Assembly: GCA_036741355.1 (NCBI GenBank)
Contig: DAINSK010000001.1
Span: forward strand, 19,047 to 83,046
DNA: 64,000 nt
Source of the DNA: Chloroflexota bacterium
GTDB lineage: Bacteria > Chloroflexota > Dehalococcoidia > CAUJGQ01
Direction of reading: 5' to 3'
In this document: piece by piece, positions 1 to 32,049 of the stretch
Layout: every line of letters starts with the position of its first letter
How positions within the stretch are numbered: the first letter of the stretch is position 1
Position numbers and translations under genes: made by a program
Notes under the pieces: model-generated
What the model saw: only the letters and a program-made list of their open reading frames with translations
The model's database searches: none
What the model was told of the DNA's origin: nothing

Positions 1-265
1 ACGTTCCGGACGAGTCGCCGCCGGTACCGCACGTGTCGATCAAGGGCCCGGCGCGCTCAACGCGCAGCGCCCGCTCCCGCATCACGCGCGCCATGCCGGT
101 GATCTCGTCCGCCGTCTCGCCCCGCAGTCGGAGCGCTGCAAGAAAGGCGCCGAGCTGCGCGGGCGTCGTTTCGCCCGACATGACTTCGGACATCACCTCG
201 GCGGCTTCGTCTTCAGTCAGGTGTCGATCCTGATTGATCAGTGCGTCCAGCGCTTCGCGGATCAT
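1..265 (-). CDS. trpD: Anthranilate phosphoribosyltransferase TrpD, N-terminal part (gene runs off the window start).
   Basis: Reverse-strand translation from the ATG at 263-265 gives MIREALDALINQDRHLTEDEAAEVMSEVMSGETTPAQLGAFLAALRLRGETADEITGMARVMRE...DTCGTGGDSSGT, typical of a TrpD N-terminus. The start overlaps the trpG stop in ATGA fashion. Confidence 0.7.
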   Translation of the reverse strand, partial: MIREALDALINQDRHLTEDEAAEVMSEVMSGETTPAQLGAFLAALRLRGETADEITGMARVMRERALRVERAGPLIDTCGTGGDSSGT

Positions 266-891
266 GACGGGTCTCCTTCGCCGGTCGCTGAGGCAGCGGC
301 GGCCCGCGGCTCACGCATAGATAGGAAGTTGCGCAAAAGGTCCTTTCCATGCGGCGTCATGATCGACTCCGGATGGAACTGGATCCCTTCGACCGCGTAC
401 TGCCGGTGACGTACGCCCATGATTACGCCGCTTTCGCTACGCGCCGTAACCTCGAGCTCGTCCGGCAAACTTGCCGGCTGCACGGCGAGCGAATGGTATC
501 GGATCGCGTCAAACGGTTCTGGCAGACCGGCAAAGACGCCGCGGCCGTCGTGGCTGATCTGCGACAACTTGCCGTGCTTGATCTCCCCGGCGCCGCTGAC
601 CTCGCCTCCGAACGCCTCGCCGATGCACTGGTGGCCAAGGCACACGCCAAGCAGCGGAACACGGCCGGCGAAGTGGCGCACAAGTTCAACGCTGATACCG
701 GCATCAGCCGGCCTACCCGGGCCAGGCGAAATCACGATCTGGTCGGCCGCCATCGCCTCCACTTCACCGACCGTAACGGCGTCGTTGCGCACCACTTTCA
801 CCTCAGCGCCAAGCTCGCAGAGGTACTGGTACAGGTTGTAAGTAAAGCTGTCGTAGTTATCCACGAGCACAAGCATGTCTCTCTTCTCCAA
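262..891 (-). CDS. trpG: Anthranilate synthase component II / glutamine amidotransferase (TrpG/PabA type).
   Basis: The ORF carries a class-I GATase fold with MLVLVDNYDSFTYNLYQYL, the catalytic Cys region GVCLGHQCIGEAFGG, and GIQFHPES. The ORF-track start at 891 is TTG; an internal ATG at 874-876 (MLVLVDNYDSF) is the more canonical start. Confidence 0.85.
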   Translation of the reverse strand: MEKRDMLVLVDNYDSFTYNLYQYLCELGAEVKVVRNDAVTVGEVEAMAADQIVISPGPGRPADAGISVELVRHFAGRVPLLGVCLGHQCIGEAFGGEVSGAGEIKHGKLSQISHDGRGVFAGLPEPFDAIRYHSLAVQPASLPDELEVTARSESGVIMGVRHRQYAVEGIQFHPESIMTPHGKDLLRNFLSMREPRAAAASATGEGDPS

Positions 892-907: not shown

Positions 908-1876
908 TCATTGAACCCGTGCGTCGCCCAACTGCTCCAGGATCAGCCGCGCCGTTTCGTCGGGCATGAGCCCTGTACTGTCGATGCGCAGGCCTCGGAT
1001 TTCACCGTTGAAGCTGAATATTCCGTGGAGCTCTCGGCTGCGTACACCCATTTGCTGATCCCATGAGCGCGCCTGATCCCGGCGACCCACTTCTTCGACC
1101 TGCGGGAGCAAGGTGACGAAGTAGATTTCGGCCCCTTCCAGTTGCTGGAGGAAATCATCCAGTTCTGACGGCTGCTCGAAGACGCCTTCCACCAAGGCGT
1201 CATATCCGGCGGCAGTGAAGTTACGCGACAGTGCGGCGGCGTTTGATACCGCCAGCGAGTAGTGTCTGTAGCTCGCCTGCCGATCGCCGCCTTCCCAGTG
1301 CGGAACGGGGGCGCCGGTACGCACCATATCCGTCAACGCATCGAGCTGAATCAACGCGGCACGGTCCAGCAATCCGCCGATCGCCTCGGCGACAGTCGAT
1401 TTGCCCGCTCCCGCCGGTCCCGTGATCACGATGACCCTGCCAGACGCCACCCCGAATTGGTGCATCGGGCCGCCCGATGGCACGAGTCCAAACGCGGTGG
1501 AGAGCGCATCGACCAGATCGCCGGGTAGTTGCAGCGATCCGAGCGCCTCCAGCGGCACCCAAACGAGAAGGCTACCGCCCGCGGTCTGGTCGAATGGTGT
1601 TCCGTTCCACTCCGTGACCATCTGCAGGTTGTTCAGTCGTACCTCCGAGCTACCGGGAGCGCGCTCGTACAGGGTATCGACGAACTCTTGCTCGTTTGCT
1701 TCGATGCCCGCGTGTTCACGAAGCTGTCTGGCCAACGACTCTTCGATCGAGTCCTCACCATCGCCGAAAGCGAAGCGCGGCAGTGAGTACGTCGCCGACG
1801 CAAGCGGCTCGCCGTCCACCTCGAATAGGACCGACGTTCCGTCACTCACCACCGCGGAGATGAAAATTGCCGGCAT
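908..1876 (-). CDS. Uncharacterised two-domain protein: a ~150-aa N-terminal domain of unknown fold fused to a C-terminal P-loop NTPase/kinase-like domain (AAA_33 / small-molecule-kinase-like).
   Basis: Walker A motif VIVITGPAGAGKSTVAEAIGG, with downstream Asp-containing motifs LIQLDALTD and DALVEGVF. The start codon overlaps the trpE stop (ATGA), and the gene ends 17 nt before trpG, so it is co-transcribed within the trp operon. Confidence 0.55.
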   Translation of the reverse strand: MPAIFISAVVSDGTSVLFEVDGEPLASATYSLPRFAFGDGEDSIEESLARQLREHAGIEANEQEFVDTLYERAPGSSEVRLNNLQMVTEWNGTPFDQTAGGSLLVWVPLEALGSLQLPGDLVDALSTAFGLVPSGGPMHQFGVASGRVIVITGPAGAGKSTVAEAIGGLLDRAALIQLDALTDMVRTGAPVPHWEGGDRQASYRHYSLAVSNAAALSRNFTAAGYDALVEGVFEQPSELDDFLQQLEGAEIYFVTLLPQVEEVGRRDQARSWDQQMGVRSRELHGIFSFNGEIRGLRIDSTGLMPDETARLILEQLGDARVQ

Positions 1877-3351
1877 CAGTATCCCAGACTCCCGGCAGGC
1901 TGAGACTCCAAAGACTGTTCGGCAAGATCAATCGCACGCAGCAGCGCCCGCGCCTTGCTGAGGCTCTCCTGGTACTCGGAGCTCGGGTCGCTGTCGTAGA
2001 CGATGCCGCCACCTGCCTGAACGTGCGCGACGCCGTCTTTCATGACCAGCGTGCGGATGGTTATGCAGGTATCAAGGTTGCCGTTAAAGCTGAAGCAGCC
2101 GATGGCGCCCGCGTAGGGACCACGACGGTCGGGTTCCAGCTCTGCGATGATCTCCATCGCGCGTATTTTCGGAGCACCCGATACCGTGCCTGCCGGAAAG
2201 CAGGCACGAAGCGCGTCGTATGGCGTAACGTCATCGCGCAGACGGCCGCTGACGTGCGAGACCAGGTGCATCACGTGTGAGTAGCGCTCGATCTCAAACA
2301 TCTGCGGCACACGCACCGTACCGGGCTGGGCCACCCTTCCGATGTCGTTTCGGCCCAGGTCAAGCAACATCGTATGCTCGGCCAGCTCTTTCTCATCATG
2401 GCGCAGCTCCTGTTCAAACCGCTGATCTTCGTCCAGGTCGCGACCTCGTGGCCGCGTTCCCGCGATCGGGTGCGTCTCGACCAGGCCGTCTTCGACCCGC
2501 ACCAGCATTTCGGGCGAAGCGCCGACGATCTCGAAGTCACCCAGCTCGAGGTAGTACATGTAGGGCGAGGGGTTGACCTGGCGCAGCGCCCGGTAGATCT
2601 CGAACGCGGGCGCCTCTGTGCGCCGCGACAGTCGCTGCGACAGCACCGCCTGAATGACGTCGCCTTTGACGATGTACTCTTTCGCCGCAACCACGTTGTC
2701 GAGGAACCCTTCACGCCCAGTGTTCGACTCCACGCGGCCGTTGCCGCTGTGCAGAACACTGCTATGCGGGCTGTAATGAAGGGGCTCTTTCAACCGTTTC
2801 GCGAGCTCGTCGATCTTGAACATCGCCAGCCGGTATGCCGCCTCGACGTCGCCGTCCAGCCGCACATGGCTCACCACTTTGATCCGATGGCGCAGGTGGT
2901 CGAACACCAGGATCGTGTCGGTGAACAGCAAGATCGACTCGGGCACCCCCAGCGGATCGGGGTCGGGCGCCGGCAGTCGCTCGAAGTAGCGGGCGACTTC
3001 ATACGACAAATAGCCAACAGCGCCGCCGTGGAATGGAGGCAGATCGCCGACCGGTATCACCTGGAAGCGGCTGATCTCCTCCTCCAAAGCGCGGAGTGGA
3101 TCGACTTCCGCGCCTTGGTCGGGGCCGGTCCGCACTATCCGGTACGGTTCGGTGCCAATGAAGGAGTAGCGCGAGAGCCGCTCGCCTCCCTCCACGCTCT
3201 CCAGCAGGAACGAGTGGGCGCCACGCTTCACTTTCAGGAACGCCGACACGGGAGTGTCGAGGTCGGCGACAACTTCGCGATAGACCGGCACCACGTTACC
3301 AGTGCCGCTTGCCGCCAGCTCTTTTACGTCCTCTAATGATGGGAAGTACAT
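1876..3351 (-). CDS. trpE: Anthranilate synthase component I.
   Basis: 491 aa with chorismate-binding family motifs [56 protein letters not shown] and [28 protein letters not shown]. An RBS (GAAGGGGA) precedes the ATG at 3349-3351. Confidence 0.9.
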
Positions 3352-3365
3352 GGCGATTCCCCTTC

Positions 3366-3715
3366 ATTGCAAACCGGCCGAAACCGGGACAACAAAAAAC
3401 CCCTACCCATATATAGGGGCGAGGGGTTCTCGCGGTGCCACCCTAGTTGCACGCGCTCGCGCGCAGCATCTCTGCTTCAGGTACGTCCACTCGTGGGCGG
3501 AGATACCTTGGGCTCTGCTAACGGTGCCCACTCCGGTGGCGCCTACTCCCCATTGGGGGTTTCGGGCCACGGCTACCGGGTCCATTCCCGCCGTCTAAAC
3601 GGAGCCCGTCTACCAGACGGAACCGCTGCGCTGGCGCCGGCTCTCACCTTACCCGGCTCTCTGGGCCACGCTTGCGGCGTACTAGTCCCGATCACTGCCA
3701 TGATTATGCGGTTGT
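3366..3715 (-). promoter_or_regulatory. T-box riboswitch leader, tryptophan specifier, controlling the trpE-X-trpG-trpD operon.
   Basis: On the minus strand the conserved T-box sequence AACUAGGGUGGCACCGCGAG (plus 3429-3448) closely matches the consensus AAUUAGGGUGGNACCGCG. An F-box CCGUUA sits at plus 3519-3524, and a specifier-loop candidate gaaUGGAcc contains the Trp codon UGG (plus 3582-3584). The terminator hairpin follows immediately. Confidence 0.75.
3391..3426 (-). terminator. Intrinsic terminator of the T-box leader (alternative to the antiterminator).
   Basis: Minus-strand sequence CCCCUCGCCCCUAuauaugGGUAGGGG followed by UUUUUUGUU, lying between the T-box motif and the trpE RBS. Confidence 0.65.
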
Positions 3716-3722
3716 GCTAACT

Positions 3723-3752
3723 ATGGTAGCGGAGTGGCGCCGACGCTGTCAA
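3723..3752 (-). promoter_or_regulatory. Sigma70-like promoter for the T-box leader.
   Basis: On the minus strand, -35 TTGACA (plus 3747-3752), an 18-nt spacer, and -10 TACCAT (plus 3723-3728). The predicted TSS is about 7 nt downstream, which is consistent with where the leader begins. Confidence 0.4.
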
Positions 3753-3942: not shown

Positions 3943-4728
3943 ATGATCAAACTCAATGACGTCACCAAGCGCTACCTGATGGGCGATGTGACCGTCGACG
4001 CACTACGCGGGGTAACGCTGGAGATCGACGACGGCGAATTCGTCGCCATCATGGGCCCCTCCGGGTCGGGCAAGTCCACGCTAATGAACATTGTCGGCTG
4101 CCTCGACACGCCGACATCGGGGTCCTATGAGCTGGACGCCATCGAAGTCAGCCGCATGACGGACGACCAATTGGCGGTGATCCGCAACCGCAAGATCGGC
4201 TTCGTATTTCAGTCGTTCAACCTATTGCCCCGCGTGGAAGCGATCAAACAAGTCGAGCTGCCGCTCATGTACGCTGGTGTGCGCGATCGCCGGAGGATGG
4301 CGTTGGACGCGCTCGAAGCCGTCGGGCTCGGCGACCGCGTCCATCACCGCCCGAGGGAGCTCTCCGGAGGACAGCAGCAGCGGGTGGCTATTGCTCGCGC
4401 CCTGGTCGGCGAACCCACGCTCATCCTCGCTGACGAGCCGACTGGCGCCCTCGACACGCGATCCAGCGAAGAGATTATGACCCTGTTTCAACGACTGAAC
4501 GAAGACCGCGGTATCACCGTCTTGTTCGTCACGCATGAGGCGGACGTTGCCGCCTACACCAACCGCACGCTTACAATCCGCGATGGCCTGATCGTGCGCG
4601 ACGGACCCAGTCCCAAGCGTTCCGAGGCGCTTCCGGATGAACACGAGCACCTCGGCCATCTCAGTCCAGTACAGCAGCACGACAACGGCGCGGTGCCGAT
4701 CGAGACGCCGGTACCGGTGGAAGGATAG
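3943..4728 (+). CDS. ABC transporter ATP-binding protein, MacB/LolD/FtsE-type.
   Basis: Walker [10 protein letters not shown], the ABC signature [15 protein letters not shown], Walker [12 protein letters not shown], and an N-terminus typical of MacB-like ATPases. The ATG is at 3943. Confidence 0.9.
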
Positions 4729-4731
4729 CGA

Positions 4732-5988
<1,257 letters not shown>

Positions 5989-31740: not shown

Positions 31741-31777
31741 CTTCAACTTTTAGCGGCTGATTCAGTGCGTCTGCCGG

Positions 31778-31864
31778 CGGAGAGGGTGGGATTCGAACCC
31801 ACGAGACGGTTGCCCGCCTACACGATTTCCAGTCGTGCCTGATCGGCCACTCCAGCACCTCTCC
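31778..31864 (-). tRNA. tRNA-Ser (anticodon GGA).
   Basis: On the minus strand: acceptor GGAGAGG/CCTCTCC, D-loop GCTGGAGTGG, anticodon loop CUGGAAA, a long variable arm, T-loop GGTTCGAATCC, and discriminator G. Confidence 0.8.
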
Positions 31865-31965
31865 CTTCCGTCCGCGGGCCAGGCGGACGATGCCCAGACT
31901 GACGAAGCGGGAAGCCCATGGCTTCCCGCTTCACATCTGCTACGTTTGCCGACCAGGTAGCGCGG

Positions 31966-32049
31966 CGGAGAGGGTGGGATTCGAACCCACGAGGCTCATC
32001 GCCTACCGCTTTTCGAGAGCGGCACCTTCAACCACTCGGACACCTCTCC
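31966..32049 (-). tRNA. tRNA-Ser (anticodon CGA).
   Basis: On the minus strand: acceptor GGAGAGG, anticodon stem-loop CCGCT-CUCGAAA-AGCGG, a long variable arm, and T-loop GGTTCGAATCC. Confidence 0.8.

Follow-up and report, generated by a model that had tools for sequence, protein, structure and literature searches.

The window analysed here, a 64,000-nucleotide stretch of DNA from a bacterium of the Chloroflexota, carries on its minus strand the tryptophan biosynthesis genes trpE, trpG and trpD, together with an embedded gene, gene X, that lies between trpE and trpG. Upstream of trpE is a leader that, judged from its sequence, is very probably a complete, full-featured T-box of the transcriptional type, specific for tRNA-Trp. 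A Trp T-box leader preceding trpE on this strand had been proposed from the letters alone (the original prediction), and all the motifs named in that proposal were found at or inside positions 3366–3752. The evidence that carries this reading was observed directly, and comprises the match of the leader to the T-box family in sequence and structure, the conservation and covariation of its helices, the specifier codon, the T-box bulge, a pair of competing hairpins, the position of the promoter and the gene content of the operon.

Family assignment and architecture of the trpE leader

A covariance-model scan matched the Rfam T-box family (RF00230) to the minus strand at positions 3704–3412, over the full model (1–219), with a score of 70.9 bits. 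The E-value was 2.5e-15 for the 651 nt searched, and 2.4e-13 for the whole 64-kb window when both strands were searched with all 4227 families. The match is far beyond chance, and is the only T-box match in the window in the E-value-reported scan of all families; the original prediction had named RF00230 as the check on its reading, and this significant, full-length match bears it out. A default Rfam scan of the window, which applies the gathering threshold, reported no T-box and two tRNA-Ser genes only, because 70.9 bits lies below the curated gathering score of 93 bits for this family. We considered that blank as proof of absence, and rejected it once the E-value scan had returned its result.

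Relatives were gathered by a TrpE scan with one genome per species, which gave 80 loci (labelled L001 onwards), all from Dehalococcoidia/Chloroflexota metagenome-assembled genomes, with a best identity of 88%; their affiliation agrees with the non-Firmicute (Chloroflexi) host that had been proposed. Orthologous Dehalococcoidia trpE leaders that lack expansions lie above the threshold, with 102.3, 102.1, 99.3, 96.7 and 94.5 bits for RF00230, and leaders with expansions scored 87.3 (L079), 70.9 (the window), 63.6 (L005) and 61.0 bits (L001); the leader of L002 was not reported at E ≤ 1e-3. In all, ten Dehalococcoidia trp T-box leaders were scored, and five are missed at the 93-bit threshold (L001, L002, L005, L079 and the window); these five are those with expansions or high G+C content.

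The elements of the leader are listed here in the order in which they would be transcribed, with the basis of each assignment in brackets.

3747–3752, minus strand: promoter −35 element TTGACA (consensus scan; relatives)
3723–3728, minus strand: promoter −10 element TACCAT (consensus scan; relatives)
3412–3704, minus strand: T-box leader, full-length RF00230 match (covariance-model match)
3572–3698, minus strand: Stem I, 127 nt (clade consensus pairs, covariation)
3691–3696, minus strand: kink-turn (K-turn) 5′ strand AGUGAU (contains UGA)
3658–3662, minus strand: AG bulge AGAGA (RF00230 consensus AGAGA)
3641–3652, minus strand: distal loop GUAAGGUGAGAG (RF00230 consensus GGUGA)
3591–3621, minus strand: 31-nt insertion (alignments with relatives)
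3582–3584, minus strand: specifier codon UGG, Trp (unpaired specifier columns of the model alignment)
3574–3576, minus strand: K-turn (GA motif) 3′ strand G-U-A (comparison of 71 leaders)
3536–3570, minus strand: Stem II with S-turn elements GAAA and AGUA and an internal hairpin CCCC-CAAU-GGGG (model alignment; kept in close relatives)
3509–3535, minus strand: Stem IIA/B pseudoknot region (model alignment)
3519–3524, minus strand: F-box CCGUUA (model alignment)
3449–3464, minus strand: Stem III, GCGCGC/GCGUGC with a GAGC loop (model alignment)
3414–3445, minus strand: antiterminator (fold of −11.8 kcal/mol; covariation)
3394–3427, minus strand: intrinsic terminator, hairpin ACCCCU.GCCC/GGGUAGGGGU (3427–3399) and U6 (3399–3394) (terminator scan; fold of −15.6 kcal/mol)
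3359–3365, minus strand: trpE ribosome-binding site GAAGGGG (read from the sequence)

Stem I contains in its lower part a C-stem (GC/GC), the K-turn, a base helix (CGGG/CCCG) and the specifier loop, and in its upper part the helix GCCGC (3678–3674)/GCGGU (3626–3622), the helix GCGUGGC/GCCAGCGC, the AG bulge and a distal hairpin (GCCGG/CCGGC). The specifier loop has ACUAGUA (3686–3680) as its 5′ strand and GGAAUGGA (3588–3581) as its 3′ strand, with the UGG-containing region reading GGGAAUGGACCC at 3589–3578. S-turn elements (AGUA and GAA) frame the loop, and both ACUAGUA and GGAA-UGG-A stand in unpaired columns of the model. The UGG precedes a conserved purine (A3581), and GAA-UGG-(A/G) is kept in 71 related leaders, in all of which UGG is invariant and the next base is A or G. 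The specificity for Trp that had been claimed is upheld by this codon, and the regulated genes match it (UGG encodes Trp, and trpE, trpG and trpD lie downstream). At the level of sequence, the AG bulge and the distal loop have the features expected of a platform for the tRNA elbow.

The region between Stem I and the antiterminator is similarly complete. In the Stem IIA/B region, the IIA stem is CGG/CCG and the loop UGGGC (3530–3526) is complementary to GCCCA (3513–3509); the F-box CCGUUA is where the original prediction had placed it, at 3524–3519. GGGC, CCGUUA and GCCC are invariant in eight close relatives. The pseudoknot pairing is a predicted one, read from invariant pairs on which covariation is uninformative. 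A linker joins this region to Stem III, which is followed by an AA (3448–3447) that is invariant in 74 leaders.

The T-box sequence itself, AACUAGGGUGGCACCGCGAG, occupies positions 3448–3429 of the minus strand. The antiterminator consists of helix A1 (UAGGG/CCCUA), a 7-nt bulge UGGCACC (3440–3434), helix A2 (GCGAG/CUCGC) and the loop AACCC. Its bulge holds the predicted UGGC, which is complementary to the 3′ end of the tRNA (GCCA); of 73 leaders, 66 have C and seven have U directly after the UGG. The discriminator base of tRNA-Trp is G, and Trp T-boxes use UGGC or, by wobble, UGGU (TBDB), so that these bulges fit tRNA-Trp. The terminator uses the loop of the antiterminator and the 3′ strands of both A1 and A2, and the two structures are mutually exclusive because these strands are shared; the terminator is the more stable of the two (−15.6 versus −11.8 kcal/mol). 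It corresponds to the hairpin anticipated as CCCCUA/UAGGGG and found as CCCCU/AGGGG, running into the U6 at 3399–3394, and a hairpin with a run of four to seven U is present in 73 related leaders. The ribosome-binding site of trpE lies ~30 nt downstream of the U tract, outside both alternative structures, and is not sequestered.

The terminal pair of helix A2 (3433/3419) is G-C in the window, versus the G-U steric sensor of model T-boxes. Among the 66 distinct Dehalococcoidia leaders this pair is G-C in 57, G-U in five and A-U in four, and G-C at the base of A2 is a less frequent but functional variant (PMC11404447); the notion that it represents a novel departure was therefore rejected.

The claimed promoter, TTGACA and TACCAT separated by 18 nt, is present, and its position is conserved in relatives. 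The scan detected a single site of this kind where shuffled sequence would be expected to give 0.3, and the end of TACCAT lies 24 nt from the base of Stem I. TTGACA occurs at the equivalent position in 42 related leaders, and TTGAC(A/G)-16..18-TANNNT in 45 of 73, where the commonest distance from the −10 element to Stem I is also 24 nt, the arrangement of the window. A 60-codon reading frame (3585–3403, minus strand) was considered as a leader gene and rejected, since its AUG is merely the AUGG of the specifier loop and has no ribosome-binding site before it.

From the established mechanism of the family we infer tRNA binding, the sensing of tRNA charge and the regulatory outcome. Transcription would start approximately 7 nt after the TACCAT box, and the specifier loop of Stem I would present UGG to the CCA anticodon of tRNA-Trp, with the AG bulge and distal loop providing the platform for stacking against the elbow of the tRNA. 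The free 3′ GCCA of an uncharged tRNA would pair with the UGGC of the 7-nt bulge and stabilise the antiterminator (3445–3414), and polymerase would continue into trpE, gene X, trpG, trpD and any further genes past the edge of the window. With charged tRNA, the more stable terminator (3427–3399 plus U6) would form in place of the antiterminator, because it takes the latter's 3′ strands, and transcription would stop ~45 nt before trpE. We consider it highly probable that the leader works in this way, by classical T-box transcription attenuation through tRNA-Trp, with the operon on when tryptophan is scarce.

Conservation and covariation among Dehalococcoidia leaders

The T-box motif was found upstream of trpE in 73 of the 80 loci, and a recognisable Stem I with a UGG specifier in 71. 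In 62 loci, GGGUGG(C/U)ACC, a hairpin and a U-run lie 65–110 nt before trpE; in most of the remaining loci the T-box element lies 1–3 kb further upstream, with other genes intervening. This arrangement was seen in L002 (region 588–1961) and in L003, L004, L007, L009, L011, L025, L027, L044, L047, L048 and L080. In L002 the gene in between codes for a TrpB-like protein of the PALP family, reminiscent of the T-box target described as trpB-like in Dehalococcoides.

Covariation was measured on MAFFT alignments of 66 distinct leaders; these alignments were not structure-fitted and the sequences are mutually related, so that shuffle counts are not probabilities. For Stem I (window included), 98.4% of cells pair, versus 30–40% with slid partners. 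Compensatory changes occur in 13 of its 22 consensus pairs (207 cells), none of 500 shuffles reached the observed score, and the leader of the window forms every one of the 22. This variation is illustrated by the base helix framing the specifier loop, which appears as CAGG/CCUG, CAAG/CUUG, CGGG/CCCG, CGAG/CUCG and CCGG/CCGG. The elements of the putative tRNA-elbow platform (AG bulge, distal helix and distal loop, 3641–3662) are nearly invariant in the 66 leaders, and the helices that enclose them covary. For the antiterminator, 90.9% of cells pair, versus 47–61% when the 3′ partners are slid, compensatory changes are seen in five of ten pairs, and none of 500 shuffles reached the observed values on four of five measures. 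The slid-partner control is the stronger argument, because it retains the relatedness of the sequences.

Stem I insertion, K-turn variant and alternative readings

The leader had been called a textbook T-box, a description that is overstated on three counts: the score below 93 bits, the 31-nt insertion at the specifier loop and a non-consensus base in the K-turn. The insertion (3621–3591) follows the 3′ strand of the helix above the specifier loop and precedes the loop's GAA. Two small hairpins can fold within it (CCGUC-UGGUA-GACGG and CCGU-UUAG-ACGG), and their likeness suggests a local duplication. In the window sequence alone, a three-way junction (CGCCG paired with CGGCG beside the specifier) is as stable as the tandem hairpins, and the local fold may be either one. 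Only the two closest relatives, L001 and L002, have an insertion at this point; its sequence differs among the three leaders, and each can form one or two hairpins. AGUA and GAA are 59–63 nt apart in most leaders, whereas the spacing is 92 nt for the window and L001 and 134 nt for L002. If the insertion is set aside, upper Stem I measures ~60 nt, as in relatives, and the distance from specifier to platform would be preserved provided that the insertion branches off. Expansions were also noted in other high-GC relatives (L003–L006), at different points of Stem I or Stem II.

The alignment that RF00230 itself gives for distal Stem I pairs CGCCGC with ACGGCG beside the specifier and leaves the true distal strand inside a 34-nt insert; it was rejected in favour of the clade alignment, which supports GCCGC/GCGGU with the insertion after it. 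The shortfall in score arises because the model misaligns distal Stem I around the insertion.

T-box leaders carry insertions without assigned function in every one of their domains (PMC7583486). The three loci with this insertion (the window, L001 and L002) are the same three that have gene X in the operon, a co-occurrence most simply explained by the shared ancestry of three close relatives. That the insertion is instead a functional addition, providing for example an extra contact to tRNA-Trp or a binding site for another factor, seems unlikely to us; on that reading, the T-box would put a Nudix-like/P-loop kinase-like protein under the control of tryptophan starvation.

Several observations weigh against an intact, conventionally folded T-box. 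The RF00230 score falls 22 bits short of the gathering threshold (70.9 versus 93), and the insertion adjoins the top of the specifier loop, at the point where S-turn and upper helix stack. Position 3575, in the 3′ K-turn strand, is U (G-U-A), whereas all 70 of the relatives compared have G (G-G-A) at this otherwise invariant position. U3575 may be a tolerated variant, a weakening change that perhaps leaves a weaker kink, or a sequence error. No independent assembly of the leader was found for checking this base: no record matches the TrpE or TrpG protein exactly, and the one contig obtained by scanning metagenomes with gene X (L081, 2.4 kb, 98% identity) ends short of the leader. A tRNA-Trp gene was sought in the 64-kb window and the 80 fetched loci, and none was found.

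Folding provides a further point of this kind. The T-box fold does not emerge from unconstrained minimum-energy folding of either the whole leader or Stem I by itself; for Stem I, the fold of lowest energy (−53.7 kcal/mol) disrupts the distal loop and pairs the UGG (3582–3584) with CUA (3683–3685). A constraint that keeps the specifier loop, AG bulge and distal loop unpaired gives Stem I a T-box-like fold at −48.7 kcal/mol, 5 above that minimum, so the exposure of UGG in its loop, a check named by the original prediction, can be accommodated. The structure given above for Stem I was accordingly taken from the model alignment, comparative covariation and the constrained fold, and not from unconstrained folding. 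The pairing of UGG with CUA across the loop is predicted in the window and in many relatives; the C of CUA is replaced by G or A in roughly one third of the leaders, and the pairing is therefore not conserved.

These points could be taken to mean that the T-box is decaying or weakened, its insertion and K-turn change cutting or abolishing antitermination and leaving the operon constitutively attenuated or otherwise controlled. The score below threshold, the uniqueness of U3575 among 71 leaders and the structurally sensitive site of the insertion would all fit such a state, as would a terminator weaker than the clade mean (−15.6 versus −20.6 kcal/mol). We nevertheless judge it improbable. All other conserved elements are intact, including every consensus pair of Stem I, and L001 and L002 keep all T-box motifs while carrying an insertion at the same point, indicating that it has been tolerated over evolutionary time. 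The ~60-nt length of upper Stem I, once the insertion is set aside, would keep the spacing of specifier and platform, and K-turn-binding proteins can possibly support suboptimal K-turns (PMC7583486). Moreover, an intact terminator without a working antiterminator would silence an essential biosynthetic operon.

Two other readings accept a working T-box and differ in its output or its ligand. Control might be exerted on translation, with the ribosome-binding site sequestered in the manner of actinobacterial ileS leaders. In its favour, the leader belongs to a high-GC non-Firmicute, and Actinobacteria do have translational T-boxes (PMC9177973). Translational control is very improbable here, given that the helix competing with the antiterminator runs directly into U6 (a hairpin and U-run being shared with the 73 relatives), that GAAGGGG belongs to neither alternative structure, and that Stem I is long with a full distal platform, versus the short Stem I of translational T-boxes. 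The specifier might also be read in another frame, in which case a different tRNA would be sensed: GAAUGGA holds an overlapping AUG (Met) and GGA (Gly), and TBDB considers the −1 and +1 frames. We give this next to no weight, since in the model alignment the three codon columns hold UGG and the purine A immediately precedes the base helix, UGG is invariant in the 71 orthologous leaders and the base that follows varies between A and G, the regulated genes are those of tryptophan biosynthesis, and the Dehalococcoides elements have been published as Trp T-boxes (PMC2494555). Transcription attenuation by tRNA-Trp remains the reading that we prefer.

The trp operon, gene X and comparison with known T-boxes

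The genes downstream of the leader are the following.

1876–3351, minus strand: trpE, anthranilate synthase component I, 491 aa (Pfam Chorismate_bind, 7e-94; Anth_synt_I_N, 8e-32)
908–1876, minus strand: gene X, 322 aa (Pfam, NCBIfam, PDB 2bdt)
262–891, minus strand: trpG, glutamine amidotransferase, 209 aa (Pfam GATase, 7e-62)
1–265, minus strand: trpD, 5′ part only, cut by the start of the window (translation begins MIREALD and ends at a GTGGD motif)

The trpD orthologue of L002 matches Glycos_transf_3 at 1.5e-90. The four reading frames overlap or nearly abut: the start of gene X overlaps the stop of trpE by 1 nt, and the ATG of trpD overlaps the stop of trpG. Given this tight packing, a single transcription unit is the natural reading. 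The claim that the leader controls trpE-X-trpG-trpD agrees with this gene order, and T-box control of gene X would follow from the structure of the operon.

The N-terminal ~140 residues of the gene X product are weakly Nudix/MutT-like (E of about 7e-5, far below curated cut-offs), and its C-terminus is P-loop kinase-like, with matches to Pfam CPT and AAA_33 and to PDB 2bdt (BH3686; 4e-13). Among the 80 Dehalococcoidia trpE loci, gene X occupies the same position only in L001 and L002 (47–50% identity), and L007 has an N-terminal fragment match. The relatives of gene X are located as follows.

L002, 3615–4667: gene X relative
L001, 5476–6081: gene X relative
L081: 98% identical copy on the metagenome contig

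Upstream of the leader, the divergent gene on the plus strand (region 3943–5988) encodes an ABC-transporter ATPase (ABC_tran, 1.4e-31); it is followed within the same region and on the same strand by a 418-aa reading frame whose translation, by inspection, resembles a membrane permease. The only tRNA genes of the window are the two tRNA-Ser genes, on the minus strand at 31776–31864 and 31964–32049 (anticodons GGA and CGA), ~100 nt apart.

T-boxes of this kind have been described in the class before. In the Dehalococcoides strains CBDB1 and 195, Wels et al. (2008) described three T-boxes per strain, one on ileS and two on tryptophan biosynthesis genes (trpE and a trpB-like gene) (PMC2494555), and later surveys list the Chloroflexi among the few non-Firmicute phyla with T-boxes (PMC3766115; TBDB). 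The trpE T-boxes of Dehalococcoides mccartyi CBDB1 and 195 (PMC2494555) share with the leader of the window the bacterial class, the gene, the specificity for Trp and the Rfam family; compared without direct alignment, the window differs in its 31-nt insertion, the U in its K-turn and the presence of gene X between trpE and trpG. The element is orthologous to these published ones; it belongs to an uncultured Dehalococcoidia lineage of high G+C content and carries an expansion of Stem I specific to its lineage. A Trp T-box on trpE is not a new kind of occurrence, having been known in Dehalococcoides since 2008 (PMC2494555) and being widespread across the class.

The trp T-boxes of Firmicutes (the Lactobacillus and Lactococcus trpEGDCFBA leaders; PMC3766115, Additional file 2) and the canonical Bacillus subtilis tyrS element have the same set of domains (PMC7583486), namely Stem I with K-turn, specifier loop, AG bulge and distal loop, Stem II, a IIA/B pseudoknot with F-box, Stem III, and an antiterminator with a UGGN bulge that competes with a terminator. 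The leader of the window differs from them in its high G+C content, its expansions in Stem I, Stem II and the linker, and the G-C rather than G-U pair at the base of A2. It is a single T-box, whereas some leaders are tandem (PMC7583486). The translational ileS T-boxes of actinobacteria are likewise non-Firmicute and high-GC and have the same discriminator core; they differ from the leader of the window, with its long Stem I and U-tract terminator, in having a short Stem I without an elbow platform and in sequestering the Shine-Dalgarno sequence. The stem Sa of staphylococcal glyS (PMC9177973) resembles the insertion of the window in being an extra hairpin module, confined to one lineage, in an otherwise conserved T-box. 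It differs in lying in the antiterminator/terminator domain and having measured effects, whereas the insertion of the window lies in Stem I at the specifier loop.

Since the Rfam threshold misses half of the leaders that were scored, T-boxes in high-GC Chloroflexota are under-annotated by default pipelines. Beyond that caveat and the annotation itself, the leader is one further example of a well-described family. For the organism, the result annotates a 590-nt intergenic region, and indicates that its trp operon, including the embedded gene X, would be switched on by uncharged tRNA-Trp.

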